Source: Schmidtea nova (taxonomy: Eukaryota). From it: 64,000 nucleotides of DNA. Numbering within the stretch: the stretch's first letter is position 1; the number at the start of each line of letters is the position of its first letter. Shown in pieces: positions 39,001-60,587 of this stretch. The translations under genes were made by a program, and so were the position numbers. The stretch spans positions 391,406,001-391,470,000 of the forward strand of contig CM097883.1 in assembly GCA_044892505.1 (NCBI GenBank), written 5' to 3'. The notes below the pieces were generated by a model. It did no database searches, was not told the origin of the DNA, and saw nothing but the letters and a program-made list of their open reading frames with translations.

Positions 39001-42000
39001 CATAATTTAGATTTAAATATAATAACATCTTGTTGTAACAATAAAGGAAATATTATCCAAAAAGAAAAATCAATTGAAAATGATTTGGATGAACCCAAAA
39101 AATTTCAATGGGTTTGCTGGGGTTAACAAAATTTCAAAAAGGGTAAATAATTCAAAGAAAGATACACAAAAATTTTTATTTGATCAATTGGCATATAGTT
39201 TAAATAAACCAATGTTGAAAAGATTTCCTACACATGATCATAAAACAATTGGTGTTGATGATTTGTGGCAAATGGATTTAATGGAAATGATACCTTCAAA
39301 AATAAATAATGGATACAAGTATATTTTGACTTGTATTGAAGGGTTCTAGTCATTATGCACGTGCAGTTCTAACAAAAACTAAATCTGCAAATGAAATGGC
39401 TGAAGATATAAAAACTTTATTTGCAGATGGACAACCTCGAAATTAAAAAACTGATTTGGGCAAGAGTATAATATAATTTAAATTAATTTTATTCTAGGTA
39501 AAGAATTTTATAATAGTAAAGTGTAAAAAGTTATCAAGGGTATTATTTTAACAATTCAGTATTTTCACAATTCAAGGCAGCTGTTGTTGAAATATTCAAT
39601 CGGACTCTAAGAGATAAATTGAAAAAAATATTGAAAGATCAATAAAGAAAAAGCCAAAGTATAAGATCTGTGATCATGTTAAAATTAGTAAAATCAATGG
39701 ATCCTTTTTAATCAAGAAATTCGACAATAATTGGAGCGATGAAGCTTATCAAATTTGAAAAATAAATATAAATCAGAACCCGGTCATGTACTTAATTACG
39801 GATCCTGAAAAAAATGAAATCAGTGGAAAATTCTATGAACAAGAGTTACAAGTCATTCCAGCCTTTCAGTATTTAGAATTCATAAGATTTAAACTCAGAA
39901 TGATTGGCAAATATAAACAATATCATGTTCAATGGCATGGGTATTAAACTCCCACTTGATTATCTGAAAACCAATTGATTAAATAAATATTATGAAAGAA
40001 AGTTAGTTTTATATAATTTTACGTAGTAATGCATGTCCTTTTATTTATCCTTATAATGATATTAGTAATTTTAATATAGAATTTCAAAACCCTATTTATT
40101 TAAATAATAATGACGATTGGGAAGTTGCTTTGATTGATTTACTTTTGTGTATAATCTATTCCCATATTATAGTAATTCTTTTATTAAAATTGAAAATAAA
40201 AGAGAAATTCAAGAAATAAATTATTTGAGAATCAATAACCAAAATAATTTCTCTGTCGTAAAACTCCGTATTTTTTAAAGACTTATGCATATATACTTTT
40301 TATAACCACTTTTTAAAACAAAGCTGTCATTTGTTTGAAATGTGATAGTTCAGTCTTAACTTTGCATAATAAACAAAAGAACTTGTATCCAAATAATTGA
40401 TGGGTCATAGTTTGCCCATCCCTGATCTAAACATACAGAATCCTAATTAAACAATCTTATAAGTTTTTCTAAAAGTTAGTGTATTTAATCAGTTTTGATG
40501 TTGAATTACATAACCTTAAATTCATAAACTAACTCGACTATTAAGATTCTCTACCGTTTTACCGTAGAGACTTTATTCAATAGTTTAGTAATTCTTATCT
40601 AAAGTCGTAGAAGAAGCTGCCTTAAGCTGAGTATTAGTGAGTATTAGTAATTTTAAAAAATTGTTTTCTGTTTATATTGAACTGCGCGATGAATCCTAAG
40701 TAGAAGTGAGCTCACGATGACTCATCATTTTAGGAAAAAACTTTGGTAATACTCCTTAGACAAAGACATATATAGACTAAAAATGTTGTCANNNNNNNNN
40801 NNNNNNNNNNNNNNNNNNNNNNNNNNNNNNNNNNNNNNNNNNNNNNNNNNNNNNNNNNNNNNNNNNNNNNNNNNNNNNNNNNNNNNNNNNNNNNNNNNNN
40901 NNNNNNNNNNNNNNNNNNNNNNNNNNNNNNNNNNNNNNNNNNNNNNNNNNNNNNNNNNNNNNNNNNNNNNNNNNNNNNNNNNNNNNNNNNNNNNNNNNNN
41001 NNNNNNNNNNNNNNNNNNNNNNNNNNNNNNNNNNNNNNNNNNNNNNNNNNNNNNNNNNNNNNNNNNNNNNNNNNNNNNNNNNNNNNNNNNNNNNNNNNNN
41101 NNNNNNNNNNNNNNAAATCAATATTAAAACGATTTAGTAAAATAATTTTAATATTTTATAAATATTTCAAAATTAGAAATCCAACTTTTGGTGTAACACA
41201 ATAACTTCCTTGACTGTGATGACCACATTACTAGTTTTGTTTGGTGCTAGATTTTTCAATGAAAAGAAATTCGATGAAATCTATTCAAACATTAAAGCAA
41301 AAATAATTGTGGGAAATTCCCTTATGATTATTTCCACTCTGATCTGTGGAGTGCTTGAAACTTTTCGCCTGAGCATGCTGTGGACTGTTAATAACTCCAC
41401 GGTTATACCAAATTATCAAGATGTAAAAATTGGTAAGTATTCATTAATTAATTTATTAATAATATTTAAAATAAAAATTGACATTAATTACCATTTAGAT
41501 AACTTCACTTACCATGTAGTGGATATTTCAGTATTTTGGATGGTTCCTCAAACTGTTCTGTTGAGTTTTAGTGAGGTCCTAATCATTCCAACTTGTAAGC
41601 TGATTATTTTTAATTTTCTCTGAAACTAGTTTCACAATTTCGACAAATGAAATTTAAGACATTATTTTCCGAAAATAAAAAATTGGGGAAGATTTATGAT
41701 TTATAAGTTTTGATCATTATTGACCAAAGATCGGCAACAGGAAGGCCCACAAACACATTTTTGGCGGTCCAAGTAAATGTGTATACACATATAATAAACG
41801 ATCCGTAACACGGTGCATTCATACAAAAACAAAAGTCCTACACGCTTGGTAAAGGCTGTGCAGAAATATTGCGTATTTATTTAAGGAAAATTTGATCTAT
41901 AGTCTTACCATTATGGGAATTATTGATATTAATATTAAAAAAGATCAAAGGTGAAACAAAAAGATAACTATGATATCTAATCTTTTGTTTTTTCTTGCTA

Positions 42001-44001: not shown

Positions 44002-44708
44002 AGTAGGCAGTTATGTGGAGCATGAGTCATCGCAGAACAAAGGAAATGACGTCACACAATGGTCATACCTTCGAAGGTGTATGGTGTGTGCTCAACCTTC
44101 AAGGGGTCAAAATCCTTCAAATATTTTTAAACATTACAAGTTATATATCAAACAAAAGGTAATTGAGATTTGAGTATGATGGTCAACCCTCGAAGGTGGG
44201 TGGTCGACCCTTGAAGGGTCCAAGACTCAAAATTTTAAAAACTATATAATATATGTATCAAACAAAAGGTAATTGAAGGGTGCACACAATGGTCATACCC
44301 TTAAAGGGTCCAAGGTTCAAATTTTTAAAACTATATAATATGTATATCAAACAAAAGGTAATTGTGAGATGAGTGTGTGTGTTACAATTTGCCAGACGAG
44401 TGTGTGTTACAAATCCTTATTCAAACCTTATAATATACATATCATTCGAAAGGTAATTATGGTGTGTGTGTGTGTGTTATAATTTTTTCTATTTCCTACC
44501 TGAATTACAACAAAGACATTGCAATCCATGTGCAACGAAACAAAGACTAATAAAACTTGTAATAATAAATTTTGCACACGTATCTTAGTGTTTAATAAGG
44601 ATCACAGTACGCATTGAACGCGCGTGGAACGCGCGTTCTTCTCCTCTTGTTGTTTAAGACAAATAACAGTACGCATTGAACGCGCGTGGAACGCGCGTTC
44701 TTCTTCTC
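44002..44708 (+). repeat. Left TIR (sequenced part; continues into gap 44709-45275)
   Basis: Reverse complement of 59483-60587 except for a 396-bp deletion and one fewer GT unit. The sequenced lengths (707 and 1105 bp) differ by exactly 398. Confidence 0.95.
44605..44708 (+). repeat. 62-bp tandem repeat containing a CpG-rich hairpin, running into the gap
   Basis: Units start at 44605 and 44667. Each has GAACGCGCGT-GGA-ACGCGCGTTC. Mirrored at 59483-59586. Confidence 0.9.
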
Positions 44709-45377
44709 NNNNNNNNNNNNNNNNNNNNNNNNNNNNNNNNNNNNNNNNNNNNNNNNNNNNNNNNNNNNNNNNNNNNNNNNNNNNNNNNNNNNNNNNNNNN
44801 NNNNNNNNNNNNNNNNNNNNNNNNNNNNNNNNNNNNNNNNNNNNNNNNNNNNNNNNNNNNNNNNNNNNNNNNNNNNNNNNNNNNNNNNNNNNNNNNNNNN
44901 NNNNNNNNNNNNNNNNNNNNNNNNNNNNNNNNNNNNNNNNNNNNNNNNNNNNNNNNNNNNNNNNNNNNNNNNNNNNNNNNNNNNNNNNNNNNNNNNNNNN
45001 NNNNNNNNNNNNNNNNNNNNNNNNNNNNNNNNNNNNNNNNNNNNNNNNNNNNNNNNNNNNNNNNNNNNNNNNNNNNNNNNNNNNNNNNNNNNNNNNNNNN
45101 NNNNNNNNNNNNNNNNNNNNNNNNNNNNNNNNNNNNNNNNNNNNNNNNNNNNNNNNNNNNNNNNNNNNNNNNNNNNNNNNNNNNNNNNNNNNNNNNNNNN
45201 NNNNNNNNNNNNNNNNNNNNNNNNNNNNNNNNNNNNNNNNNNNNNNNNNNNNNNNNNNNNNNNNNNNNNNNNNNNCAGCTTATAAAAACTTACAAAAACT
45301 AATACAAAAATTTTACAAATAAAAGCAATTAAAAAACGATAACAAATAAATTAAGAAATCTATTGAATGAAAATAAA

Positions 45378-48300
45378 TCAACCAAAATAATTATGATCAT
45401 TGTTAAAATCATCAATAAAATCATCTGGATTGTCTGGATCATTTCCTTCATTATTTTGATTCAAAACTGGAGAGATTGGTTGATTGAAAGGTTCTGGATC
45501 ATCATTTGGTTCATCAATAAAGGTATCACCCACCCGAAAATTGCCATAGGCTAAACTTTTATTTTTTGTTACCCAAAACCTTTTGTCGTCCATATTTGTC
45601 AGTGCTTTTTTGTTGTTCTTAATGCTATATAGCTGATGATTTTTGCTGCATATTCTAAATTGCGGTACCTTGTAAATCCTATTGTTCACATAACAATCAA
45701 GATACGACTCATGACTCAGTCCAGTATCTTTCAAATCAACTCCCTTAGCCTTCATGTTACTCGCATCACCCAACAAACTGTAACATTTAGGCCTCAGGAA
45801 CACCCACTCCTTATATAATAGTCCTTTACTCTCGTCTTTGAACTTGCCAATGACAGAGTCAAGGTTCCTATTATATAACGGATGATTAGGGTCATAATTG
45901 GATGTGTCAAGCAACTGGTCTCTAATCATAGCAGCTAAAAGAATGTCAAGACTACAATTTTTAATCTCCAAAAAGAAGGAATCAGTGTCTCCAGCAACTA
46001 TATTAATCTGACAGTTCAATTCATTACGATATTTTTGTAACTCATTGTACTGCAACTCGTACATTCTCAGTTTGGATAAATCTAGTACAGTTTGCCCAAT
46101 GTAACTAGGTCTATCCAAACACACTGATTCCTTCCTAAGCAAAACCGAAATCAAATCGTCGTCTATCCTTGTGGTTTTCCTAAATGCCGGTTTTGAGGCA
46201 TATGTGATTAGTTTTTGTGCTGAATTGCAGAGTCGCAGATTAATTCGTTTTTTCAAGTTCTCAACAGTTTTTCCATACAAACTGTTGTTGAGCAACTTGT
46301 AGTAATTTTTGTCTAATTTACTTGTCGATGTTGCTCTTAACTGTGTGTTTGTGTCAATGTAATTTTTAAATACATAGCTTTGGTCGTATTTAATTGCCCT
46401 ATGTATTTTTGTTACAAGTGCACCTAAATTAATAAAAATCTGTAGAAGCCTCCAATGAAGAACGTAGTTCTTTTTGGAGTTGTGCGTTAGCAACAGCTTC
46501 TTAACTTTGGAAAAAGGAGCGCACATCTTTTCAGCGGCAATTGGAAAATCATCCAATTTATCGTGAATAGATGTCGGTATTTCTAAATCTACTTCTATGG
46601 TATAACCATAGCTAAGCAAACTTAGATCTACCGTAGCGCATTCAATTAATAAATTAGTTAATAAATTATCATCGGTCACCCATTGAAAATTACCCTCGGG
46701 TAGCTTTTGTGATAAAGCCCATCCATACAGGTTGTTGATATCGATATACAACAACTCTGTATCCGCACTACTTTTAACATAATGTTTGTTTACAAAAGTA
46801 AGCCCCCCACGAATTCCCCCTTCAAAGAAATTGTACATTTCCATGTCGGTCAATAATGTTATCGGTTTCTCAAGAGTCATCAAAGCCGAACTCCAACTCA
46901 TACCGGGAATCCCCAAGAAATTAAGGGGCTCAAGTTTGTTATGGGCAATGCTCTTAGCCCGAAATTGCTGAAAAAAGTCAGCCAGTAAAAACACATCAAG
47001 TTTTAGATACACCATCATGTAATCCAAAAGGCAAGTACATGATGTTTCTCGCCATATTACTTTAGCCAACTCATATTCCTCTGCGTCAACACCTTTCCAA
47101 ATTGGTGGTAATTCTGATGTTGACCTTAAAACATCTAAAGAGGTCGCAACATCGTAAGGAAAAATTCCCTTGCTGTTAATTATAGTTCCCCTGAACTCTG
47201 AAGATGTTAATGGCAAAGATGTTAGTGTTGCTACAGCACCTTTTAATGATTCAGACACAAATTGACAAGAGTCAATAAATTTCACAGACAAAGAATCAAT
47301 ATTAGCAAAAAGTGAAAGAAACTTCTCGCTAGTAATTGGAATGCAGCTTATATTCCAAGATGTATACCGAGATAAGCCAAATTTGAGGATATGATGGAGA
47401 TCATACCCTCTCAAATTATGAAAGACAACAGGCAAAGTGTGTCTTATTTGCCTGCTAAGATTACACTTTTTGCAAGCTGCACCAATAAATTGACCTGAAA
47501 AATGGTCGTGATCTCTAACTGGTTCTACTAACAGTTTCTTGCACAAATGACAGTTTGTGCTGTTATTAAAAGTTATTTGATCATCGCCAGTGAAGATCAT
47601 TTTCTTATTGTAATTTTTATAAAAATAGGGACTTACAATATATTTACTTATATCTTCAATTTCATGAAGAAATTGATCTACACAATCAAGCCCTAAAAAT
47701 GATTTGTAGATTTTTTCACCGGTGAAGTTATTAATTAGTAATAAGCCAGCTGCAATCGGTAAATGTTTTTGATAATATTTGGTGTCCTTCGGTAAAATTG
47801 CCTCAAAATCGGCAAAAATGACAAAGGGAGGAGTGACAGTTTTCTTCCAATCAGTAAATTCAAGCAAAGGGTTTTTAGGCAAAGTGTACAAAGTTGTACC
47901 CAATTGATTATTTTCACAAAGACCACGATGACGATTAAAACAATCATCAGTTCGGAAACCGTTAAGACACCGAGGACACCATTGACAGCAAATACGGACA
48001 GAAGTTATTGATGCATTTCTGCAATTTAAGAATCGATTTAAATCAGTTATGGCGGTGTAATGAAAATTTTTATTATTATCTAAAAGCAGTAAGTTAATTG
48101 GTGTTCCTCCTACAACCTTACTTTTATAAATTATATCTATAAAGGGATGTTTCATTATAGAGCTGGCATTACTTATATCAATCAACGCAGTTTCATCATA
48201 CGACAAAACATTAATTGCATACCCTGGATTTTGTCGTTCAAACTTAGAAATATTTCCAAGTTTCATGGGCATATCAGCAGCATCATACTTTAGTTGTGAA

Positions 48301-49304
48301 AGGTTATAAGAGGAAGGAAGATGTCTCAACTCAGGAATAATACTATCATATTTTAAAATAGCCAAAATGCTATAAAGAAAGCAAAACTCATCCTGATTTT
48401 CAATATTAACAATGCAGTATTTACGAAGTAAAGTTTTAGGAGTTGCGAGAAATCGACGACCACTTAAGCGACTAATTTCACTATATTTTGTTAATAAAAA
48501 ACTTATATATTCAATTTTATGTATCGTCCAATTTGAACCCTTTTCGTTAATTTTAATAATTTTTTCGTTTAAAAGAGCAATACCTTCATCAATGAAGGTA
48601 TCACTCATAGTTCTGGCAGAATTTGAGATTACGAAAGATTGGAGTTCGTCATCTTTCTCAAATTCTACCTTTATACAAAACTGAATTTTTACAGAACTCA
48701 TCTGCGAAACTGTTAAATTTAATTTATTAATTAAAATATCTGGAACAACAACAATTTTTAAGTTTAAGGATGATACATCCATTTTTAAAATTATGTGGGA
48801 ATCGTTTAAGTCGGAAATAACCTCGACATTTCCGCATCCTACTTGATTAATTAAATTATTATTAATTATTTGATCATCATCATCACTGATTTCGATGATT
48901 TCATCGTCACTTATTTCAATTATTTGATATTTTTGAGGAATTGAATCCTCATTAAAACTTTTTCTTTTATTATTATTTAAATTATTAATTAAAATATTTA
49001 GGTTATTATTTAATTGTTTATTAATATTAATTAATTCATTTATTTGATTGTTATCAAGCTCTTTGTTAATATTTAGTACTTGGTCTGGTATTTGTTGATT
49101 AATTATTGTTTGTTGGTTAAGTGTTTGTTGGTTATGTGTTGAATATAATTTATTAAAAAGTGATTTTTTAGATGTCATATACTGACTCAAATGAATACAG
49201 TGTTTTTCATAAAATTGTATATATGGTATGTTATCAATAATATTACAATTAGGGCATAAAAGGTGGGTGATACCGTTATACTTATAAGAGTAATACTTTT
49301 CCAT
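45378..49304 (-). CDS. pPolB: Protein-primed family B DNA polymerase (1308 aa) with N-terminal TP/vOTU-like region and an EndoVII/HNH-like insertion
   Basis: Exonuclease motifs IFADFEA and FHNLRGYD. Polymerase motifs YIDINNLYG, KLLNNSLYGK and AGDTDS. CHLC...VRDHDHFSG...ACKKCN insertion. QDEFCFLYSI...FHYTAI is a candidate Cys-His protease dyad. Confidence 0.97.
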   Translation of the reverse strand: MEKYYSYKYNGITHLLCPNCNIIDNIPYIQFYEKHCIHLSQYMTSKKSLFNKLYSTHNQQTLNQQTIINQQIPDQVLNINKELDNNQINELININKQLNNNLNILINNLNNNKRKSFNEDSIPQKYQIIEISDDEIIEISDDDDQIINNNLINQVGCGNVEVISDLNDSHIILKMDVSSLNLKIVVVPDILINKLNLTVSQMSSVKIQFCIKVEFEKDDELQSFVISNSARTMSDTFIDEGIALLNEKIIKINEKGSNWTIHKIEYISFLLTKYSEISRLSGRRFLATPKTLLRKYCIVNIENQDEFCFLYSILAILKYDSIIPELRHLPSSYNLSQLKYDAADMPMKLGNISKFERQNPGYAINVLSYDETALIDISNASSIMKHPFIDIIYKSKVVGGTPINLLLLDNNKNFHYTAITDLNRFLNCRNASITSVRICCQWCPRCLNGFRTDDCFNRHRGLCENNQLGTTLYTLPKNPLLEFTDWKKTVTPPFVIFADFEAILPKDTKYYQKHLPIAAGLLLINNFTGEKIYKSFLGLDCVDQFLHEIEDISKYIVSPYFYKNYNKKMIFTGDDQITFNNSTNCHLCKKLLVEPVRDHDHFSGQFIGAACKKCNLSRQIRHTLPVVFHNLRGYDLHHILKFGLSRYTSWNISCIPITSEKFLSLFANIDSLSVKFIDSCQFVSESLKGAVATLTSLPLTSSEFRGTIINSKGIFPYDVATSLDVLRSTSELPPIWKGVDAEEYELAKVIWRETSCTCLLDYMMVYLKLDVFLLADFFQQFRAKSIAHNKLEPLNFLGIPGMSWSSALMTLEKPITLLTDMEMYNFFEGGIRGGLTFVNKHYVKSSADTELLYIDINNLYGWALSQKLPEGNFQWVTDDNLLTNLLIECATVDLSLLSYGYTIEVDLEIPTSIHDKLDDFPIAAEKMCAPFSKVKKLLLTHNSKKNYVLHWRLLQIFINLGALVTKIHRAIKYDQSYVFKNYIDTNTQLRATSTSKLDKNYYKLLNNSLYGKTVENLKKRINLRLCNSAQKLITYASKPAFRKTTRIDDDLISVLLRKESVCLDRPSYIGQTVLDLSKLRMYELQYNELQKYRNELNCQINIVAGDTDSFFLEIKNCSLDILLAAMIRDQLLDTSNYDPNHPLYNRNLDSVIGKFKDESKGLLYKEWVFLRPKCYSLLGDASNMKAKGVDLKDTGLSHESYLDCYVNNRIYKVPQFRICSKNHQLYSIKNNKKALTNMDDKRFWVTKNKSLAYGNFRVGDTFIDEPNDDPEPFNQPISPVLNQNNEGNDPDNPDDFIDDFNNDHNYFG

Positions 49305-49981
49305 TATGACGTGGCAGTTATTATGGGAAGTACTGTTGCAGTATTGCGGGTATAAATTGCCTATATAACAGGAAATAAAATATTAAATTCAAGTATAAAA
49401 AAAAAAAAAAAAAAAAAAACATTTTATTTACCTTTAACATAATACGTAATGATTTACAAAAACTATTACGTATTATATTAAGTTTAAATAAAAAATATTT
49501 AAAATTTTTAAAATAACTTTTGATAATATTGTGACTGTAAATTATTAAAAATAATATGTTATCATAAAATTATCGTTCATAAAAAGGTTTCTTAATCATT
49601 AATCATTTATTTTTTCATATATATAAATCATTTTTTATAAATAAATCATTTTATTTTCATAAATAAATAAAATAAATAATTTCTTCTTCATAAATAAATG
49701 GTCATAAATAAATCATTTTCATAAAAATATATAAATCATTTCATCTTTAATAAATTCATAAATTCATAAATGTTTAAAATATTATTATTGTTTTATAATA
49801 ATATTATCATTTCTAATATTATTATTATAAAATAATAAAATATTTACTTTTACTTCTTAAAATTCATAACGCATTTAATTTTCATAAAATACATAAAATT
49901 TTAAAAATATTATTATTATTTTTTAATAATATTATCATTTCTAATATTATAAATTAATAAAATATTTAATAATATATTTTC

Positions 49982-50419
49982 TTAGATATAATATAAAAAA
50001 TCATCAAAATATTTACATTTTTTCAATCCAATCGTTAATCCCGCAGCATTAAAATTTGATCCATTGCAAGTAGAACCAGCTGCATTCGGGGCATAAAAAC
50101 TAGAACCAGCAGTAATTTGAGCATCAGTTTGGCCGTAATTTATTACATTATTAATTTCTAAAGATTTTTGTCAATTAAAATTAACAATAATAAAAGTAAA
50201 TATACCATTGACTCTATTTCCGATGACTCCAGTTCCAATGACTCCAGTCCCAGTGGCAGATCCGTTGTTATTTAAGATGTTGTTCGCGATATTGTTCGCT
50301 ATATTAACTTCTAATAATATTAAAAATAAATAAGTAAATAAATAAAAAGTAAATTTACCATTGACTCCAGCTCCGTATGATTTTCGAGCAACTCGTCCTT
50401 GATTCATTAAATTATTCAT
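49982..50419 (-). CDS. Predicted 3-exon orphan protein (113 aa), N/G-rich, with an N-terminal ARKS motif
   Basis: Exons 50359-50419, 50206-50310 and 49982-50157, separated by two 48-nt GT-AG introns. Splicing removes the in-frame TGA at 50171 and gives MNNLMNQGRVARKSYGAGVNEVNIANN...GLKKCKYFDDFLYYI. Confidence 0.65.
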
Positions 50420-50479
50420 TTTTGTTTAAAAGACTTGATAATAGATTTTGTGATTAAAAGTGACGAAATAATACAAGTA

Positions 50480-50645
50480 TAGACTATATAAAGCAGATAA
50501 TTTCAAGTTTTATTAACCATCCAATCAGAATCGAGATAGGATAGGGAAATAAATGCACACATACTGCATGTTTGTTTATGTCACGATAGTTGTTATGTGA
50601 CTACATAAAGACATGTAAGTTCACGACCCCATGTGTCTTTATGTC
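50480..50645 (-). promoter_or_regulatory. Putative Pol II promoter of the spliced orphan
   Basis: TATATA at 50485-50490, CCAATCAGAA at 50521 and AAAGACATG at 50607. Confidence 0.45.
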
Positions 50646-50779
50646 GTGACTTTATCGACAAAGGCTTTGTTGATGTCATCATGCTTTATGATATACATGT
50701 GACGAATAATTTAATAATATTTATAAAATAATAATAATAATTACATTTATAAAATAAAGAGATGATAATAATATTTATA

Positions 50780-50780
<1 letters not shown>

Positions 50781-50864
<84 letters not shown>
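50781..50864. repeat. (AAT)n microsatellite inside the Polinton
   Basis: Pure AAT run of more than 25 units downstream of the nuclease-like ORF. Confidence 0.95.
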
Positions 50865-50869
<5 letters not shown>

Positions 50870-50911
50870 CATTAATACACATTATTAAAATTTATTAAAA
50901 TAACAATACAT

Positions 50912-51328
50912 TTATTGCTTTAAATAATCAATAACTGCACTCAAACATCCTTTATAGGCACACATACTATGATCCCTATATGGACATGATATATTATCTG
51001 GAACATCTTCAATTTCTTTAAAATTATATTTAATTAATCTCAATTTCGGGAAATATTTCTTCAAGACTTGGAGTTTATCAGCATCAGTGACATAGAAAAT
51101 AGCACTAGTATCTTCAATATCATTCATAATACATGTTGGGCAAAAGTAATCTTGTCCTTCATACCATTCTAATCGATCGGGAATTCCAATTCCAGCCCAG
51201 AACGGTAAATCATTGTATATATAATACTTTGGTTTAAAAATATTATTAACATTCATAATACATAATTCTTTAATAATTAATCCTCCCATATCATTATAAC
51301 CGTAAATATCAATAAAATAACAAGTCAT
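50912..51328 (-). CDS. DEDD/DnaQ-fold, Maelstrom-like putative nuclease (138 aa)
   Basis: N-terminal YFIDIYGY...IIKEL resembles ExoI with DxE changed to DxY. C-terminal CPYRDHSMCA resembles a C-H-C zinc site. Assigned by motif recall only. Confidence 0.5.
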   Translation of the reverse strand: MTCYFIDIYGYNDMGGLIIKELCIMNVNNIFKPKYYIYNDLPFWAGIGIPDRLEWYEGQDYFCPTCIMNDIEDTSAIFYVTDADKLQVLKKYFPKLRLIKYNFKEIEDVPDNISCPYRDHSMCAYKGCLSAVIDYLKQ

Positions 51329-51361
51329 TTTTTCACAACAAAATTTATTAAACTAAATTGT

Positions 51362-51738
51362 TTATAACATAGATTTTAGCCATGCAAGGCAATGTTGACC
51401 ACAAGTGGTCGAGAATGGATGTTGATACCGAATTCTATTATATACAATCGGTTTACCCATAGTCTGCAATTTTCGAACTAGTAAATTGGGATAATAATAT
51501 CCAAATGGATCAAATACATGTATTCGATCCGGTTTCACGTAAACAGCAATCCAATGCTCACCGCCCAAAGTAGATGTCTGAGTATTTACAATGATGGCCT
51601 GATTAATATCTAAATACGGAATTTTATCTAGTGGATAAACTCCAATAAATTGATTTCCCAATAGTTTTTTACCAAGTCTATATACCTGAACAGAACTAAT
51701 TTAATTAAGTATTTTAGTAATTAAAAAACTTACTCCAT
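51362..51738 (-). CDS. PRO: Adenain-like cysteine maturation protease (112 aa after splicing)
   Basis: GEHWIAV, FDPFG and CGQHC supply the catalytic H, D and C. The start requires ATG GA at 51738-51734 and a 38-nt GTAAGT...TTAG intron (51696-51733), giving MDSVQVYRLGKKLLGNQFIGVYPLD. Confidence 0.9.
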
Positions 51739-51786
51739 GACAATTATTTCTATCTTTTGGTTCATTTATACCTGCACAAACTAATA

Positions 51787-51859
51787 ATGTTTGAGCTCTG
51801 CTCAAAACATTAATTTTTGAGCTCTGCTCAAACTAATAATGTTTAAGCTTTGCTTAAAC
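51787..51859. other. Three tandem stem-loops overlapping and following the MCP stop codon
   Basis: TTTGAGC-TCT-GCTCAAA twice (51790-51806, 51816-51832) and GTTTAAGC-TTT-GCTTAAAC (51841-51859). Confidence 0.7.
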
Positions 51860-53074
51860 CAGTACAGTTCGATTCGCAGTAATTTGTACTTCATTTTCAA
51901 ACAATCCATATATTATTACATGAACCGGTTCGTCAATGGCTTTACCAAATTTGATATCTAATCGTAAATTCCCATTTTGCGGGATTTGACTTTGATTCAA
52001 ATCAAAATCAGGAGCAAGAACAAAAGTAAAGAATGGATAACTTGATTTAAATTCATCGAGACTTATACCACAATTCAAGTTTTTATCTAAATATCCTAAA
52101 TTTCTAACAAGACTTTGCATATATGTGGCACTAAAATTATCATTTTCAAAATCTTGAGTATAAGTTTCTCGATAATCGGTATTTTTCGATAATGATAATG
52201 AAGTTACATTAAAGTGTTTGAATGTAGATGAAGATTCAGCATAAGACCCGTTATATTGATTTTCTGTTTGAAAAGCTACAAGAATGAAATTAGGCATTCT
52301 TCTATCTCCAAATATTTGCTCCTTGTAAAATGATGATGCACCTTTACCAATTGCAAACGATACGATTTCTTTGGATTTTATCGGATAAATTGCATGTTTG
52401 CTATTTAAACCAATTTGATGACCGGCCAAAACTGAAGATTCACACCGAACTCTTCGAACCATTAATTTAGCGTCTACTAATTGGAGTATTGGTTTCCCAG
52501 TTGCTGATTTCAATGATAATGCAGAATCAGATCGCTTCAATCTAATATGTACATTAACTCCGGGAAGTAAGTATTTAGGTTGATCCATAAAATCGAGTTG
52601 TAATGATGAACACATGTTAAAAAGTTTCGATCCCTTGATCCACTTTTTTCTATCGTCACTTGCCGCATATCCCATTGGAGTAAGACAAGTTTCTTTTGAA
52701 TCATTCGTATAATTTAAAATAGTTTCGATTATTGCCTTGTGTGCATAAGTATTGTTTCCACCCTCGATTTTTATATTATTAAATCCAAGAATTGCATCTT
52801 TGAAAAGTGTATGAAACAGGTAATTATTAGGTACTACATCACTCGCATCAACTAAGTTCTTTTTATCTTTATCTACAACTTTGACCGTAACGGATAATAA
52901 CGTATCGTTCAAATCCAAATATTCGGTTTGTGAACCATTAATGTAAAATTCCACATCATTTCTACTATCTGTAATAGAATTCATTGGAAACACATCTTCA
53001 AACACCCCATATTCAATAACTGCTTGGGGGCTTGGTCGATCAAAAAGACATAATTCAGATTTACCGCAAATCAT
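51854..53074 (-). CDS. MCP: Double jelly-roll major capsid protein (406 aa)
   Basis: ELCLFD...P....VEFYI.GS..EYLDLNDTLL at the N-terminus and GNLRLDIKF...V.IIYG at the C-terminus are typical of Polinton MCP. Size and position fit. Confidence 0.9.
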   Translation of the reverse strand: MICGKSELCLFDRPSPQAVIEYGVFEDVFPMNSITDSRNDVEFYINGSQTEYLDLNDTLLSVTVKVVDKDKKNLVDASDVVPNNYLFHTLFKDAILGFNNIKIEGGNNTYAHKAIIETILNYTNDSKETCLTPMGYAASDDRKKWIKGSKLFNMCSSLQLDFMDQPKYLLPGVNVHIRLKRSDSALSLKSATGKPILQLVDAKLMVRRVRCESSVLAGHQIGLNSKHAIYPIKSKEIVSFAIGKGASSFYKEQIFGDRRMPNFILVAFQTENQYNGSYAESSSTFKHFNVTSLSLSKNTDYRETYTQDFENDNFSATYMQSLVRNLGYLDKNLNCGISLDEFKSSYPFFTFVLAPDFDLNQSQIPQNGNLRLDIKFGKAIDEPVHVIIYGLFENEVQITANRTVLV

Positions 53075-53451
53075 TCTTCAAATATAGTTCCATGACCTTT
53101 CATTCGTTTGTTTATACGTTTTCGTTTACGTCTTGGTCCTACTGGTACAGGTTCCGGTTCATTTTTTGTAAACATATTTGTAATTGAAGGAATCATTTGT
53201 GTTACAGCAGGTATAGCTTTATTAACTGCGGCCAAAGCATTTGTTTTCAATGACGGTAATAGTTTATTATCTTTCATGATTACATCCTTGGCAGTATTGA
53301 ATCCAAAACTACCTAGTCGCTTAAGTATTGGAAGTGCAAATCTTCCAATAGTTTTTAACCAACCTGATCCATACTGTTTACCTACAAAATACGGTAATTC
53401 GCCACCGGTTTGGCTATTACTGTACAATGAAATTATATCGGGATTACTCAT
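53071..53451 (-). CDS. Small virion protein with an amphipathic helix and basic tail (pVI/PZ-like, 126 aa)
   Basis: QTGG and QYGSG candidate protease sites, helix GWLKTIGRFALPILKRLG, and NLS-like PRRKRKRINKRMKG. Its stop overlaps the MCP start codon (ATGA). Confidence 0.7.
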   Translation of the reverse strand: MSNPDIISLYSNSQTGGELPYFVGKQYGSGWLKTIGRFALPILKRLGSFGFNTAKDVIMKDNKLLPSLKTNALAAVNKAIPAVTQMIPSITNMFTKNEPEPVPVGPRRKRKRINKRMKGHGTIFEE

Positions 53452-54490
53452 TTAATCTACGAAAATGTAATGTCAAATGCGTTTTTGAATCTTTTGGAAA
53501 ATTTATTAATTTACCACTATCGTCACGTATATTTATTTCTATATTGTTTATACATGAGGTAGAAATAGGTAAGTACATTGGATTATCCATTACTATTTGT
53601 ACAACTTCATCCTGTTCATATTTTTCGATCCATACCGATTTCAGTAGAGGAACCAGAGTATCACCGACAATTATTGGTTCAATAATGTTACTGTAAATGA
53701 ACATTTGTTGATGATGAACAAGTATTTTAGGTTTCACAGTCCCATCGACAAGGTTTCGGTCTCTATACGTTTGTTTAGCTAATCCTAAAGTATTGACCAA
53801 GTTTTTATCAAATGTAACTTCACTAATATTATCATTGAGACAGAATTGGAACCATTTATTAATCTCTAGAGTTTTAAAGATATGGGAACAATTGAATGAT
53901 AAATATTTAGATAAATCTTCCAGTTGCATTATATACAAATCATTTGCAAATGTAAATGTATCTTCAATTTCTGCATCATATGATATTGTCACTGTAAAAT
54001 CTTCTTTCAAATAACTATTCGGTTCAAATAATATGAACTTTAATTGATATTCTTTTAGTGTACTTACAATTTTAAGTTGATCACTTCCCATTCGCTTGGC
54101 TTCTTCAATATTTTTAAATGTAATTGTATATGGAGTAAAATCACAATTAATATTTAAGCAACCATTGCTGAAATACATACTACAATGAACATTCAAATTT
54201 TGGTTAGGAATAGTATATATCCTTTCAAAATTGTTGATGATGAATTGACCACTGCATGTTCTATTTTCAATTCTTTTGTAATCAATCTTACATTGACTAT
54301 AAAATGGAAATGTATTGTACACAAACGTGAAATCTTGTAATGCAACTTCCCAATTACCATCTAAATAAATTGGATTTTGAAGATTGACCATGAATTTACT
54401 GGCTTGATTGTCTGGATGTATTAGGGGACAGCTATTACTTGGTAATATAGTATAGAAATTCACTTTACTAGGTCTTTTGACGATATCCAT
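53444..54490 (-). CDS. mCP: Minor capsid protein (penton, single jelly-roll, 348 aa)
   Basis: FYTILPSNS...F.VNL..PI.L.GNWEVAL and IYSNII...VGD..VPLL...YLPI...IEINIRD...LHFRR. Confidence 0.88.
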   Translation of the reverse strand: MDIVKRPSKVNFYTILPSNSCPLIHPDNQASKFMVNLQNPIYLDGNWEVALQDFTFVYNTFPFYSQCKIDYKRIENRTCSGQFIINNFERIYTIPNQNLNVHCSMYFSNGCLNINCDFTPYTITFKNIEEAKRMGSDQLKIVSTLKEYQLKFILFEPNSYLKEDFTVTISYDAEIEDTFTFANDLYIMQLEDLSKYLSFNCSHIFKTLEINKWFQFCLNDNISEVTFDKNLVNTLGLAKQTYRDRNLVDGTVKPKILVHHQQMFIYSNIIEPIIVGDTLVPLLKSVWIEKYEQDEVVQIVMDNPMYLPISTSCINNIEINIRDDSGKLINFPKDSKTHLTLHFRRLNE

Positions 54491-55507
54491 GATGGTTCTT
54501 TATATCCATGCCACTTTACATAGTATTGTTTATCCTTACCTACCACTTTAGTTTTCAATATTTTTTGAATTCTAAATATTGTGGGAGGGGGAATAACTTG
54601 TAATTCTTGTTCATAGAATTTCCCACTGACTATATTGTTATCAGAGTCAGAAATAGTATACATGACAGGATTCTGGACTGTGTTGACTTTCGATATTTTA
54701 AATACCTCATCACTCCAATTACTATCAAAATTTTTAATGAATGGCGATGCACTAATTTTACTAATTCGAACATGATCACCTATTTTATATTTTGGTTTCT
54801 TTATTTTTGTATCATTCAAAATATTTTCAGTATCAACTACTTCAGCAGGTTTCTTTCCATTTATACCTCGATGAGCAGAATGATTATAACTATGAATCAT
54901 TTGTGGTAAAACATTAATCCATGTTTTATTCCCTTGATGCACAAAATATTTTTTGAGACGATCTCGTAATGTACGATTAAATCTTTCAACATGAGCGGCT
55001 TTGAATTGAGAGAATACTGAGTAATGATTGATTCCCTTTATAATTTCTTTGACTTTGCTATTGTAAAATTCCTTACCTAGATAAATAATTATCATTTTAT
55101 AAAATATTTATTAGCTTACCTAAATCAGTTTGTAAATTAGTTGGACGTCCACTTTTGAACATTGTTTTGATTGCGATTGCCATATCATTAGCAGATTTAG
55201 ATTTTACCGGAATAGCTCGAGCGAAACGACTGTAAACATCAATACATGTTAAAATATACTTGTATCCCTTGTTAATTTTTGAATACGGAATCATTTCCAT
55301 CAAATCCATTTGCCACAAATCATTAATTCTATATGTTTTATATGCTCGAGTCGGAAACCGTTTCAGCATCGGTTTGTTTAGACTGTATGCAAGTTGCCCC
55401 GATAACCAACTTTGAGTCTGTTTTTTCGAATTCGATACATTTTTGCTTAGCTTTTCGACTCCACCGAAACCTGCTTCGTGTTTTGGGTTGGTCCAAATCT
55501 TCTCCAT
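54460..55507 (-). CDS. INT: Retroviral-like DDE integrase with a C-terminal chromodomain (334 aa, two exons)
   Basis: WQMD (D), QTDLG|KEF (D) and HVERFNRTL (E). Chromodomain IQKIL...YYVKWHGY..PSW. A 43-nt GTAAG...CTAG intron (55077-55119) joins the two ORFs in frame, 1005 nt in total. Confidence 0.93.
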
Positions 55508-55562
55508 TACAACAAGAAGATTTAAAGTTTAAATTAAGATTAGGCAATGATTGTCCCATTGT

Positions 55563-56105
55563 TTATGACTGTTTTCCTAATAAACCAGCACCTCCTAATA
55601 GTGATAATGCTAATGGTAACAATGCTGCAATAAACCCTCCTTGTTGTTTATATATTATTTTACGCATTAATTTTCTATTTTTGGTTTTTACAAGTGATAA
55701 CAATGGTTTCTTGTGTTTGTTCAAAACTCTTCTATTAGATTCACTTATATTGATTTTACCTCTAACAACTTTAATTAAAATCATTAGTAAATCGTCAATA
55801 ACGTAATTAGGAAACGATTGTAAAATACTCATTCTTCTAATACTAGGGGCTTTAAGTAATGCATTGAAAAATGGGAAACTACGATGATGTAGTTGTTTTG
55901 GATTTGGTTTGTAAGTATTTTGAATACGATTACTTTTTGGGATATTATCAATAAGTAATTTTTTAGATGGTGTATAACTAGTTTTTGAAACTGGTTTCTT
56001 TGTTTTCTTTGTAAATACTTTCTTTGAAACTAATTTCTTTCCCGGTTTCTTCATTTTTCTAGCCTTTATCAAGCGCTCAAACTTTACTCTAGATTTCATT
56101 AACAT
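55563..56105 (-). CDS. Lys/Arg-rich core protein with an adenovirus pX-like hydrophobic tail (180 aa)
   Basis: Highly basic N-terminus. C-terminal QQGG|FIAALLPLALSLLGG resembles adenoviral pX GGFLPALIP. A homologue is present in relic B. Confidence 0.7.
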   Translation of the reverse strand: MLMKSRVKFERLIKARKMKKPGKKLVSKKVFTKKTKKPVSKTSYTPSKKLLIDNIPKSNRIQNTYKPNPKQLHHRSFPFFNALLKAPSIRRMSILQSFPNYVIDDLLMILIKVVRGKINISESNRRVLNKHKKPLLSLVKTKNRKLMRKIIYKQQGGFIAALLPLALSLLGGAGLLGKQS

Positions 56106-56125
56106 GATTGATAATATACATCTAG

Positions 56126-56749
56126 TTAACTTTGTTTATAAACCATGGCTCCTTCCTTGTTGAAAATATCTGTTCTAACTCTTAAATCATCACTACATTG
56201 TTGCGTGAAATCAAGAAAAAGATATCCATGAGGGGCTTTTGTGGCATCTTGGAATGCTTCAATCAAGAAATTACGATTAGAAGGGTATGCTTGTCTTGCA
56301 AGAAAATCAATAACTGTTGCGTCTCTAGGATTTTTGAAAACAGCAAGATATTGAACATTTAAATTACGAGTTCGATGACTGCCGCCCTGATGAAATAAAT
56401 TCTGAGTTATAAAAATGACTGTAACACCCTTGTGTCTAGCGATTTTTGTAAATAAATTATTAAAATCCTTTTCTTTATTTGCTTCTTGGTACAAATCATC
56501 AATAATAATCACATCCCCTTCTCTTAATCTTGATGACCAATTTTTATCGAAACCTTTTATTATAGTCATTTTTATTTTACAAAATTGATCTTGAGTCATT
56601 CCATGTTCATCATCCGCACCCCTATGCCAATAAATTTTATTAAACTTTGATTTGAATAATTTTGATTGTAATAATTTACAAACAAATAAAGTTTTTCCAC
56701 TCCCGCTCGGTCCAACAATTTGAAACACTGCATCATTTCTTAATTCCAT
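56126..56749 (-). CDS. ATPase: A32/FtsK-HerA-family genome packaging ATPase (207 aa)
   Basis: Walker A GPSGSGKT, Walker B IIIDD and the RH...FITQ motif. Confidence 0.95.
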   Translation of the reverse strand: MELRNDAVFQIVGPSGSGKTLFVCKLLQSKLFKSKFNKIYWHRGADDEHGMTQDQFCKIKMTIIKGFDKNWSSRLREGDVIIIDDLYQEANKEKDFNNLFTKIARHKGVTVIFITQNLFHQGGSHRTRNLNVQYLAVFKNPRDATVIDFLARQAYPSNRNFLIEAFQDATKAPHGYLFLDFTQQCSDDLRVRTDIFNKEGAMVYKQS

Positions 56750-56846
56750 TTTTCAAATTTTATTAATTTATTATTATTGTTTATATTTGTTTAAAATAAT
56801 AGTTGTTTTTATTATTGTCATTTTTAAAAAAAAAAAAATTTCAGTA

Positions 56847-57314
56847 ATGATTAGCAACATAAATTATAAGGGTAAGACTGATGTATCTCACATGAATTTT
56901 CCAAATGGGAAACCACAGCAAATTGTTGATAGATGTGGTAAATATCCGATAATATATTTTAAGACCGGGAGATATAGAATTATGGGATGTAAGGAATTTA
57001 TTAGTGATGAAAAAGTAAAGTTTTACAATTTAACAATACAATCAATCACTGTTACGACAGACTTGGGATTTAATTGTAATTTAAATGATTTGGCTAAATT
57101 AATAGAATGTGTTTACGAACCAGAAATATTTCCAGCTTTGAGATATACAAAATATAACCCCATGTGCGTTAATATATTTGCAAGCGGTAAAGTAGTTATA
57201 TTAGGTTTAAAAAACAAAGACTATTTAAATATAGTTGATATTATTATTAATGATGTAAAATCAATTATTGAAGATAAAGCCTTTGCCGATTTCATATTAT
57301 CGTGTGACTCATGA
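56847..57314 (+). CDS. TATA-binding-protein-like protein (155 aa from ATG 56847)
   Basis: Two-repeat TBP pattern: ISNI...IYFKTGRYRIMGCK and IQSI...YEPEIFPAL.Y...NIFASGKVVILGLK. The canonical TBP repeat 2 reads IQNMV...YEPELFPGLIY...LIFVSGKVVLTGAK. Confidence 0.85.
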   Translation: MISNINYKGKTDVSHMNFPNGKPQQIVDRCGKYPIIYFKTGRYRIMGCKEFISDEKVKFYNLTIQSITVTTDLGFNCNLNDLAKLIECVYEPEIFPALRYTKYNPMCVNIFASGKVVILGLKNKDYLNIVDIIINDVKSIIEDKAFADFILSCDS

Positions 57315-57339
57315 TTGCAATAAATCTACAATATTAATG

Positions 57340-57460
57340 CACGATTCTGATTGGTTCAGTGTGTATATCGATAATAAAGACATGTCATGCATGCTCGAAT
57401 TTGATTGGTTCAGTGTGTAATATTTTGTACATTCCTTGTGTTTCTATCGTATATATACAA
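57340..57460 (+). promoter_or_regulatory. Putative Pol II promoter
   Basis: GATTGGTTCAGTGTGTA twice (57349, 57403), AAAGACATG at 57376 and TATATATA at 57450, upstream of ATG 57498. Confidence 0.5.
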
Positions 57461-57497
57461 TTAACATTTTGCTATCATTTATATTCACAATCACAAA

Positions 57498-58136
57498 ATG
57501 CCAGAGATAATGAAATATGGTAAATTTTAAAGTTTACTATTTTTTCATTTTTATAATTTTTTCATTTTAGAGAAATTAATTTCCGTACTTTACGGTAAAC
57601 TTGAGGAAATCTATCCGATGCTGATGCCGAAGCTGACCTATACAGCACCGGAGCTCTTTCCCTACAAAATTCAATGCCTGACTGGGATCGATATTCATCA
57701 GGTCTTACTGGATCATCTGGCTAATCGGGACAGTGAAATGCCATATATGGCGGAGCACATCTTGTGCGCATACCAATGCGGCCATTGTATGGACCGTATA
57801 CAGAAGTATCGGGTCTGGATGTTACGAAACGCCCTCCACCAATTTGAAATGGATTCCAAGAAATTGGAAAAAATTGACGAGGAGGACGAGATTCCAAAGC
57901 AATGGACAAATTCAACACCCGAAGCGTCGGATGATGAAAAATCGCCAGATTGGGATAAATCGCATGATTGCGATAATTCACCTGATCATTTAGATGAATT
58001 GCCTGAAATACAATTATCTTTTGGTTGTTCGACTGCTATGGATCAATGCGACGAAAATAAGTGTATTGAATCGCCTCAATCGCCTGATTGCGATCAATGC
58101 CATCGCAAGCTTTCAAATATAGAGATTGCAGAATAA
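57498..58136 (+). CDS. Conserved Polinton orphan protein (about 195 aa, two exons) with Cys/His clusters and an acidic SP-rich tail
   Basis: Exon 57498-57519 and a 51-nt GT-AG intron (57520-57570) join in frame to the 172-aa ORF. A homologue with an AG acceptor at a similar position is present in relic B. Confidence 0.7.
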
Positions 58137-58559
58137 ACATTATTAATGTTATATGTTTTTATTTGTGTATTTTCTTTTTATGTAGACACATTTTATGTAG
58201 TGACATTTTATGTATTCACATTTTATTATTTAATAAATCTTTTATCATTGTTATTTTAGTTTTTTCTGTTTCAGTTTTTTATTTTGTTAATGAGTTATTT
58301 ATTAAGTTTTTAAATAATTTTAAAATAATTTTTATTTAGTTTTTTGAAATGAAATAGGTTTACTAATAATTTATATTAAGTTTAAAATAAGTTTTATTTA
58401 AATGAATTATGTTTAATAGTAATTTTTATAAATAAAGACAATTTCAATAATAAATACACATGCATGAATTAATTACAACAAAGTCATGTATTCCAAAATC
58501 AGTTTCAACAAAATAAACATACATGTATAATTAACACACGACAGACATGTAGCAAATAC

Positions 58560-58705
58560 GTGTGCAACAAAGACATGCATGCAACAAGTACTAATGTATG
58601 CAACAAAGACATGCATGCATGCATGTAACAAAGACTTGCATAACATGTGCAGTTAGAATGCGTCATTTTGATTGGACAAAGGCATTACTCATCACTATAA
58701 ATACA
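58560..58705 (+). promoter_or_regulatory. Putative Pol II promoter
   Basis: AAAGAC(A/T)TG three times (58569, 58605, 58630), TGATTGG at 58669 and TATAAATA at 58696, upstream of ATG 58740. Confidence 0.55.
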
Positions 58706-58739
58706 AAGACATTTTTCAGATGTTGTCACAATTTCAAAA

Positions 58740-59156
58740 ATGCCAGCACGTAAATCAACTTATGACATCAGTGAAGAAAGAAAAATCAATAATGAAGTGA
58801 AACCAGTACAAATGTATTACGATTACAAAATTTATTTCCTGGTTCAAGAAATACCATTTCGTTTGTCGTATCCAGTGAAATTAACAAAGTCATTGTATGA
58901 CAATTTAGCTGCAAATCTAAATAAAGAAGATGTTGTTGCACTAAATAAAGTTTTATTCAAAATCAATAACAATTTAAGTTGCAAGGAAACTATATGGATT
59001 AACAACCGGAAAACTCGTTTCCATGATGCTTTCCAATCTATCGAATACAAGGATCAAGAAAATTGGTTTATTACCATAATCATTCAGGGATATAAAATCG
59101 ATACAAAAGATGTTATAACTCCAATTTGGAGAATTGACAGTGCACGATATGCATAA
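58740..59156 (+). CDS. Orphan protein (138 aa) beginning MPARKST; C-terminus possibly OB-fold/SSB-like
   Basis: Clean ORF with a good upstream promoter. ITIIIQGYKI...ITPIWRI is a beta-rich pattern that only loosely recalls viral SSBs. Confidence 0.7.
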   Translation: MPARKSTYDISEERKINNEVKPVQMYYDYKIYFLVQEIPFRLSYPVKLTKSLYDNLAANLNKEDVVALNKVLFKINNNLSCKETIWINNRKTRFHDAFQSIEYKDQENWFITIIIQGYKIDTKDVITPIWRIDSARYA

Positions 59157-59482
59157 CTGTTATTTTATAAATGTTATATTCAATAAAATTTAGTAATTTC
59201 AATTTTAGTTTTTGATTGTTTGAATTTTTATAAGNNNNNNNNNNNNNNNNNNNNNNNNNNNNNNNNNNNNNNNNNNNNNNNNNNNNNNNNNNNNNNNNNN
59301 NNNNNNNNNNNNNNNNNNNNNNNNNNNNNNNNNNNNNNNNNNNNNNNNNNNNNNNNNNNNNNNNNNNNNNNNNNNNNNNNNNNNNNNNNNNNNNNNNNNN
59401 NNNNNNNNNNNNNNNNNNNNNNNNNNNNNNNNNNNNNNNNNNNNNNNNNNNNNNNNNNNNNNNNNNNNNNNNNNNNNNNNNN

Positions 59483-60587
59483 GAGAAGAAGAACGCGCGT
59501 TCCACGCGCGTTCAATGCGTACTGTTATTTGTCTTAAACAACAAGAGGAGAAGAACGCGCGTTCCACGCGCGTTCAATGCGTACTGTGATCCTTATTAAA
59601 CACTAAGATACGTGTGCAAAATTTATTATTACAAGTTTTATTAGTCTTTGTTTCGTTGCACATGGATTGCAATGTCTTTGTTGTAATTCAGGTAGGAAAT
59701 AGAAAAAATTATAACACACACACACACACACCATAATTACCTTTCGAATGATATGTATATTATAAGGTTTGAATAAGGATTTGTAACACACACTCGTCTG
59801 GCAAATTGTAACACACACACTCATCTCACAATTACCTTTTGTTTGATATACATATTATATAGTTTTAAAAATTTGAACCTTGGACCCTTTAAGGGTATGA
59901 CCATTGTGTGCACCCTTCAATTACCTTTTGTTTGATACATATATTATATAGTTTTTAAAATTTTGAGTCTTGGACCCTTCAAGGGTCGACCACCCACCTT
60001 CGAGGGTTGACCATCATACTCAAATCTCAATTACCTTTTGTTTGATATATAACTTGTAATGTTTAAAAATATTTGAAGGATTTTGACCCCTTGAAGGTTG
60101 AGCACACACCATACACCTTCGAAGGTATGACCATTGTGTGCACATCGGTATTACCTTTCGAATGATGTATTACACACAAGGTTTGAAAAATCTGAAGGTT
60201 TTTGACCCTTTGAAGGTTAAGGACACACCATAGACCCTCGAGGGTATGACCATTGTGTGCACCTCTCAAAGACCTTTCGAATGATACCCTTGTTTGAAGG
60301 TTTGACCTTATTTGACCTTTGGAAATTCAAATTCAAAATTTGAATTTGAAATGAGTCATCGATGACGTCATAAAATTCAAATTTGAAATGAGTCATCGAT
60401 GACGTCATCGATGAGCCATGCCGATGAGTCATCGATGAGTCATGCCGATGAGTCATCGATGAGTCATCGCGATGAGTCATCGATGACGTCATCGATGAGT
60501 CATAAAAAAAAATTTCCTAACCCCCCCGGGGGGGTGACGTCATTTCCTTTGTTCTGCGATGACTCATGCTCCACATAACTGCCTACT
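59483..60587 (-). repeat. Right TIR (sequenced part; continues into gap 59235-59482)
   Basis: Contains the 62-bp units, degenerate repeats of about 90-120 bp, the AP-1/CRE array and the terminus. Confidence 0.95.
60352..60566. promoter_or_regulatory. Array of 9 AP-1 (TGAG/CTCA) and 4 CRE (TGACGTCA) consensus sites with a C7G7 palindrome
   Basis: TGAGTCA at 60352, 60389, 60425, 60436, 60449, 60460, 60473 and 60496; TGACTCA at 60560; TGACGTCA at 60363, 60400, 60484 and 60535; CCCCCCCGGGGGGG at 60521-60534. Confidence 0.75.

Follow-up and report, generated by a model that had tools for sequence, protein, structure and literature searches.

Three short exons in a Maverick/Polinton element of Schmidtea nova are probably the spliced leader of its DNA polymerase gene

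Introduction

The window analysed here is a stretch of 64,000 nucleotides of the Schmidtea nova genome, in which an initial annotation had described a hidden three-exon gene for a 113-aa protein with an ARKS motif near its N-terminus and an Asn/Gly-rich body, read as a histone H3 mimic fused to a condensate-forming region. The question raised by this locus is whether such short exons make up a gene of their own or belong to a larger one. Annotation of Polinton core genes commonly takes the first ATG of a long ORF as the start, and in vertebrates these genes are described as lacking introns; intact vertebrate Mavericks are reported without introns (PMC8097293), which is a described trait of those elements and no formal criterion for a Polinton. 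The family B polymerases (PolB) of Polintons/Mavericks and adintoviruses have a long N-terminal region described as a terminal protein plus a vOTU (PMC8502044; 10.1101/2024.03.18.585575). The OTU-bearing PolB classes were defined in PMC8502044, whose main text contains no match for 'splic'. From sequence comparison, we consider it highly probable that the three short exons are the 5' exons of the protein-primed DNA polymerase gene of a Maverick, with three phase-1 introns of the host type.

Results

The element around the exons

The exons lie within an element of about 16 kb that is a Maverick/Polinton (Table 1); they are on the minus strand, immediately upstream of the polymerase ORF, which has the same orientation. 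The TIR arms (44053-44956 and 59235-60140) are 99-100% complementary; they are partly N-masked, the outer ends of the element are not fixed by the flanks, and the 6-bp target-site duplication is tied to the same ends. A Pfam search revealed rve (E=2e-9), chromo (E=2e-4) and Pox_A32 (E=4e-6) matches, as well as a TBP-like gene at 56847-57314 on the plus strand (TBP, E=3e-15), of which the sister families have one too. The 1,308-aa ORF carries the family B polymerase motifs YIDINNLY, KLLNNSLYGK and DTDS, and OTU-like N-x-D-x-x-C-F and H-Y motifs. It did not match PF03175 in Pfam at E<=0.01, and its atlas neighbours were arthropod-dominated clusters, with PF03175 clusters at lead level only (0.80-0.81); with OTU-like motifs on one side and the missing PF03175 match on the other, the element is not assigned to the Alpha adintovirus class. 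The putative protease ORF was recognised by eye, through its His, Asp and Gln/Cys motifs, and has no profile match. Neither the 406-aa nor the 348-aa ORF matched Pfam in the profile search, and from their size and position we take them to be putative capsid proteins.

Introns are also predicted in the integrase and protease genes (Table 1). Being short and at conserved positions, they suggest that splicing is a general trait of these elements, in which the intronless core genes of the vertebrate ones are not found. The split integrase ORF, read with its predicted intron, is probably not broken.

In the AT-rich genome of 1.25 Gb, scoring 40 out of 1,549 candidates gave at least 41 matches to the 651 bp around the three exons at 99-100% identity, and the coding pattern of ARKSYGAG occurs at 180 places. 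Decayed pieces of older Maverick families lie beside the element, at 38040-40640 and 17385-17950, and a palindromic array of short ATGAGTCATCG-type repeats (60388-60503) stands directly outside the right TIR.

Table 1. Coordinates of the element and of its proposed leader and polymerase exons in the window
Feature	Position	Strand	Remarks
Maverick/Polinton element	44053..60140	.	TIRs, integrase, packaging ATPase, protease, capsid-like ORFs, TBP-like gene
Promoter-like block	50484..50550	-	Upstream of exon 1; reverse CCAAT box 50521-50525, TATA-like 50484-50490; putative promoter function
Exon 1, coding part, 61 nt	50359..50419	-	Conserved M-N-N start; ends in K-S-Y-G-A-G-V-N motif
ARKSYGAG motif	50366..50389	-	ARKS 50378-50389; K-S kept in 43/43 closer relatives, ARKS in 5; candidate protease site
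Intron 1, 48 nt	50311..50358	-	GT-AG, phase 1; 49 nt in 7/24 copies
Exon 2, 105 nt	50206..50310	-	N/G-rich, repetitive; indels among 24 copies +24, -12, -15, -15
Intron 2, 48 nt	50158..50205	-	GT-AG, phase 1; contains stop codon of 82-aa ORF
Exon 3, 141 nt	50017..50157	-	Ends in Lys plus one base at AAAT|GT
Intron 3, predicted, 656 nt	49361..50016	-	10.8% GC, phase 1; includes last 11 codons and stop (49982-49984) of the initial annotation
Exon 4	45378..49360	-	56 nt of conserved Cys/His-bearing frame before first ATG (49304), then 1,308-aa family B polymerase ORF
Protease intron, 38 nt, predicted	51696..51733	-	Just past start codon; same position in sister families, 38-40 nt; window and 7/9 sister loci
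Integrase intron, 43 nt, predicted	55077..55119	-	Accounts for split integrase ORF; same position in family B, 39-44 nt, 9/10 loci

Short introns in the window and its sister families

Both 48-nt GT-AG introns of the initial annotation were recovered on the minus strand, in phase 1 and in the sequence contexts that it gave, and we reproduced the 82-aa unspliced ORF, the 113-aa frame left after removing the introns and the ARKS at residues 11-14. Introns 1 and 2 have a GC content of 8% and 15%, and the three exons of 38%, 41% and 35%. A 23-nt motif of the promoter-like block occurs 205 times in the genome and a variant differing by one base 2,762 times (reversed control, 0). The first 30 loci with the promoter variant of the window comprised 24 copies of its subfamily and 6 loci of other lineages. 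Of the 24 copies, all retain both acceptors, and 23 retain donor 1, as many as retain donor 2; seven share a 1-nt insertion in intron 1 that breaks the 82-aa ORF and keeps the spliced frame. Exon 2 has four indels, each of a length divisible by three, and exon 3 of one copy has gained a single nucleotide. The two 48-nt introns are almost certainly real. Exon substitutions in this young subfamily are mostly non-synonymous, as expected of decay after insertion, so no sign of selection is drawn from them. Pfam gave nothing for the 82-aa ORF. In the read data from four runs of unspecified kind, no joint fell on the three leader introns among the 10 joints listed, and none on the protease or integrase introns among 15 of 192 joints. 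The promoter block upstream is covered deeply and has one loose read end with an adapter, presumably of the Tn5 type; the four runs look like DNA and thus have no bearing on the splicing of the leader, protease or integrase introns.

The promoter variant that occurs 2,762 times marks a diverse sister family, here family C, whose capsid ORF is about 93% identical to that of the window. Using a parser blind to phase on 26 of its loci, we found three or four short exons in each, with phases 1,1,1 in 24. Fifty-four of the 58 internal exons are multiples of three in length, the other four being three mis-parsed last exons and one exon at L056, and the 58 short introns (39-72 nt) fall 18/23/17 over the three remainders. 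The leader peptides diverge widely and share an M-N-N or M-Q-N start and an Asn-rich character. In the closest active sister subfamily, whose neighbouring ORF is 96% identical, there are four leader exons, and 13 of 24 loci parse wholly in phase 1 to a Cys junction, the others being decayed or out of reach. Family B is more distant (capsid ORF 67% identical) and was at one time thought to have no leader gene; this was dropped when a different, unrelated single coding leader exon was found 1.5-2.0 kb upstream, ending in Lys + T|GTAAGT in 9 of 10 loci.

The number of coding leader exons thus ranges from one in family B through three in the window and most of family C to four in two lineages, and by eye to five or more in L108 and L149. 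In the window, the contexts of donors 1 and 2 are identical at 27 of 35 nt, and their pairs with donor 3 at 16 and 13; the same comparison in 17 family C loci gave 14-22 of 35. Same-phase exon-intron units have likely undergone local duplication or conversion. The duplicated unit proposed by the initial annotation is therefore likely on the alike donor contexts and the variable exon number, but the equal length of the two introns, to which it had also pointed, is weak evidence, with a chance of 0.12 and an intron 1 that is one nucleotide longer in some copies (Table 1).

Junction with the polymerase exon

Exon 3 of the window leads to an AAAT|GTAAAT donor at 50017/50016, after which the GC content drops to about 11% over 656 nt. 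This last leader donor, AAAT|GT, was found in all 26 family C loci (22 parsed directly and 4 four-exon loci located separately). On the other side, an acceptor AG at 49361/49360 lies 56 nt upstream of the PolB ATG. The distance is exactly 56 nt in all 24 subfamily copies, in 22 of the 23 family C loci that extend to the ATG (58 in the remaining copy; three further loci do not extend that far) and, in the closest sister group, in all 16 loci that do so; in family B it is 59 nt, in 9 of 10 loci. Because 56 leaves a remainder of two, it matches a phase-1 donor, and because the first two bases of exon 4 are only GC or GT, the junction codon always reads Cys. The 54 nt ahead of the ATG have a pN of 0.135 and a pS of 0.499, a ratio of 0.27 (14 distinct of 23 sequences, with L053 left out for its 2-nt insertion), compared with 0.24 for the first 60 nt of the polymerase ORF; in the two shifted frames the ratio is 2.05 and 0.55, with stops in 6 and 23 sequences. 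None of the 23 has a stop or a Met in these 18 codons. Judged by their substitutions, the codons are under purifying selection, and given an in-frame stop at 49385 the 18-codon peptide can only arise by splicing.

The full protein would then have 102 + 1 + 18 + 1,308 = 1,429 aa. Within its 1,308-aa part, a Cys/His cluster is followed by an Asn-rich linker, KRK, acidic repeats, Q-x-G-x-G, the OTU-like Cys and His, and the polymerase motifs. Folded as a single sequence, the first 500 residues encoded by exon 4 had a mean pLDDT of 33.7, too low for use, and the terminal-protein and OTU parts are putative. We were unable to find a homologue of PolB residues 1-300 among 7,991 candidates, or of the Cys/His cluster among longer proteins, either result being weak evidence in both directions. 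As side observations, the conserved KRK, at about 48800-48950 on the minus strand and in sister loci, is followed by repeated hydrophobic-acidic motifs of the I-I-E-I-S-D-D type, which we take to be SUMO-interaction-like, and the poly-Asn linker is of very variable length among loci.

The stretch 49982-50016, with which the 113-aa frame closes, is 11% GC and begins with the third donor, and sisters differ in what is read through after the last donor, both in its sequence and in its length (7 to 74 aa). The last 11 codons of that frame are very likely intron read-through. It appears that what had been taken for a stand-alone gene ending at 49982 is very likely the first three exons of the polymerase gene.

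Other isoforms are possible, since intron 3 also contains AATAAA/ATTAAA hexamers and further sites that resemble donors and acceptors (49431, 49535); an internal coding exon from acceptor 49535 was rejected, as it hits a stop by eye. In one such scheme the locus would yield two products, the spliced polymerase and a short leader-only protein that regulates polymerase output, made by retention of intron 3 or by polyadenylation inside it. The third donor, GTAAAT, is weaker than GTAAGT, AATAAA occurs at 49655, 49611 and 49428, and in family C the read-through often yields a hydrophobic tail of about 25 aa. However, such tails and hexamers are expected of a sequence that is about 90% AT, the tails differ in length across lineages as given above, and one copy is frameshifted in its tail, which makes a second product improbable beside the spliced polymerase.

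The ARKS motif

The initial annotation had looked to sister elements for orthologues, and orthologous exons were found there, but without the histone-like motif. ARKS, residues 11-14 of a low-complexity leader whose composition suggests disorder, occurs in 0 of 26 family C loci, all of which read [ILV]-A-G-G there with codons varying synonymously, and the closest active sister subfamily reads FGKS (22 copies). A flank-anchored search that did not presuppose ARKS, and by design excluded the Val codon of the window's subfamily, gave 44 matches, one by chance (L168) and 43 in relatives. K-S is invariant in the 43; the residues before it are F-G in 22, A-G in 12, A-R in 5, and F-R, A-V, A-stop and S-E once each, so that K is preceded by Arg in 6 and by Gly in 34. 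The Arg of ARKS is needed by H3K9/K27 enzymes, and it is this Arg that is the variable position. Our earlier view that ARKS itself is under selection was dropped on this search, the constrained part being K-S-Y-G-A-G. Compared in this way, ARKS is one subfamily's reading of the motif when an Arg precedes the K, not a conserved unit, and an H3 mimic is not supported.

Could the leader of the polymerase nonetheless have had its ARKS selected in this one subfamily, as an H3K9/K27-like decoy or docking site? ARKS-x-G does match the H3 tail, the motif is fixed in the 180 copies (21 of the 24 in the aligned set), and the older diverged copies L150, L151 and L154 retain it with other codons. It occurs twice in the 3,625 aa of the element against 0.033 expected, for a motif chosen after the fact: a 138-aa ORF at 58740-59156 (+) starts MPARKS. 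A KRK is conserved in exon 4 as well. Yet the changeable Arg beside an invariant K-S and the FGKS of a sister subfamily that is active speak against selection for mimicry, and the family C homologue of the 58740 ORF (L086) starts MNSRKQ, without ARKS. This ORF has 14,576 first-look candidates in the genome, many as inverted pairs 9-11 kb apart, which far outnumber the copies of the window's subfamily. SARS-CoV-2 ORF8 is said to carry ARKS as a histone mimic in a viral protein. Even this best-known viral case is disputed in a rebuttal (PMC10833455). Like ORF8, the element has a four-residue ARKS match in a protein of viral type; the difference is that here ARKS forms part of a polymerase leader, and sister elements do not conserve its A and R. 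Taken together, we regard a selected decoy as quite improbable. A fuller version, in which the protease site of the young 180-copy subfamily turned into ARKS, acts as the decoy on, or released from, the end-binding protein and, with the ARKS of the 58740 ORF, engages host silencing enzymes at the replicating element, seems to us remote.

Nor does the Asn/Gly-rich body fare better. A prion-like domain has at least 30 Q+N per 80 residues and few bulky hydrophobic residues; the leader reaches at most 21 Q+N per 80 aa, and I, L and V make up 20 of its 102 residues, so that neither prion-likeness nor a condensate-forming region is supported. By contrast, the linker in exon 4 reaches 32 Q+N per 80. 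A stand-alone three-exon gene joining an H3 mimic to such a body has in its favour a frame open to the stop at 49982, which is present in all 24 copies (these being 96-99% identical), poly(A)-like hexamers downstream and the two ARKS of the element. It would end, however, in a tail that past Lys-Cys is AT-rich and unconserved in sisters, it would leave the conserved frame before the PolB ATG without a start codon, and its ARKS is missing from all 26 family C loci and, among the 43 closer relatives, from 38; with the low Q+N count, such a gene is very improbable. That the region is unspliced, with the 82-aa ORF as the gene or no coding function at all, is scarcely credible: intron 1 lacks a stop codon and is divisible by three in length, but its shared insertion in 7 of 24 copies and intron lengths that are random modulo three, where exon lengths are not, go against it.

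A candidate protease site in exon 1

For the polymerase leader, a different role of the motif may be considered. In exon 1, constraint falls on [ILV]-A-G-G in one clade and on K-S-Y-G-A-G in that of the window. By analogy with adenovirus, we tentatively suggest, at slightly less than an even chance, that this Gly motif is a cut site for the adenain-like protease of the element, which would trim the leader as happens to the adenovirus pre-terminal protein (pTP). According to PMC4246237, adenovirus protease cuts at (M/I/L)XGG|X or (M/I/L)XGX|G, with Q or N also tolerated at P4, and pTP is cleaved at such sites. The family C leaders fit (M/I/L)xGG in 23 of 26, the other three having Val at P4. 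The motif of the window, S-Y-G-A|G, has Ser at P4 and is outside the adenovirus consensus, which may not be that of the element's protease; a similar K-Q-Y-G-S-G occurs in the element's own 126-aa ORF. Q-x-G-G and Q-x-G-x-G motifs are found in the basic proteins of the element, and the folded part of the polymerase is preceded by Q-x-G-x-G or Q-Y-G-G in the window as well as in 18 of 19 loci of family C and 5 of 6 of family B. We found no description of Polinton protease specificity in the literature compared, and a variable leader with a fixed Gly motif offers a simple test of it.

Discussion

In the configuration that we propose, transcription would begin at the CCAAT/TATA block, the host spliceosome would excise 48, 48 and 656 nt, and translation from M-N-N would give a protein of about 1,429 aa. 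In it, a 102-aa low-complexity leader, presumably disordered, would be followed by a Cys/His cluster, which may bind metal and whose first Cys codon would be created at the last splice junction, by the Asn-rich linker and by the terminal-protein, OTU and polymerase parts, in the order known from the literature. With a single phase shared by all junctions, leader exons could be duplicated or resized without loss of frame, which fits the fast change of leader length and exon number.

The element resembles Polintons/Mavericks and adintoviruses in its TIRs, rve integrase, A32-like ATPase, putative adenain-like protease and family B polymerase with OTU-like Cys and His. Unlike vertebrate Mavericks, it has predicted spliceosomal introns in PolB, integrase and protease, and unlike the OTU-bearing protein-primed PolB of adintoviruses, its polymerase would carry a hypervariable spliced leader and a Cys/His cluster ahead of the folded part. 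The messages for adenovirus pTP and Pol have short 5' exons (PMC11304566), and the E2B region of adenovirus is alike in joining short 5' exons of replication-protein messages to a large coding exon. In adenovirus, however, pTP and Pol are separate proteins from separate messages, where the element of the window has one fused gene; elements of the window type have from one to five or more coding leader exons and introns of the size of host mini-introns, unlike adenovirus. The viral protease cuts adenovirus pTP at xGG and xGxG, and the parallel drawn for exon 1 would extend this to its Gly motif. Spliceosomal introns within Polinton-like elements also occur in dinoflagellates, where introners are described in Maverick-Polinton-like proviruses (PMC11957031); those are mostly insertions that followed integration, whereas the introns described here seem to be inherited across families at fixed positions. 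Nothing on spliceosomal introns in PolB was found in the portions covered of 10.1101/2023.08.22.554363, PMC6431247 and PMC12220804, and our literature searches, made largely among openly accessible papers, listed none that describes a spliced coding leader for the polymerase of an animal Maverick.

When several element families are compared, the polymerase appears to start about 120 residues ahead of the long ORF, in short phase-1 exons, so that annotation based on ORFs would cut the polymerase short and create a spurious small gene. The idea of a histone mimic serves as a warning here, since a match of four residues dissolves once sister elements are counted. If confirmed, the genes for replication, integration and maturation would all rely on the host spliceosome, which would be a control point for the host or for the element.

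Some minor observations concern the organisation of the sister copies. In L023 (about 7040-7580, minus strand), a spliced gene is nested antisense inside the long polymerase intron of family B; its C-terminus is by eye like that of the 138-aa ORF at 58740-59156 of the window. In family B (L021-L025, L077, L078, L083 and L085), there are two tandem genes resembling the 348-aa capsid-like ORF. Two copies of the leader region, L002/L003 (G000:C2 ~390218600-390219950), are arranged as an almost perfect palindrome, at least 2.9 kb long, with its centre upstream of the promoter, and other copies of the leader region stand as direct pairs 9-15 kb apart.
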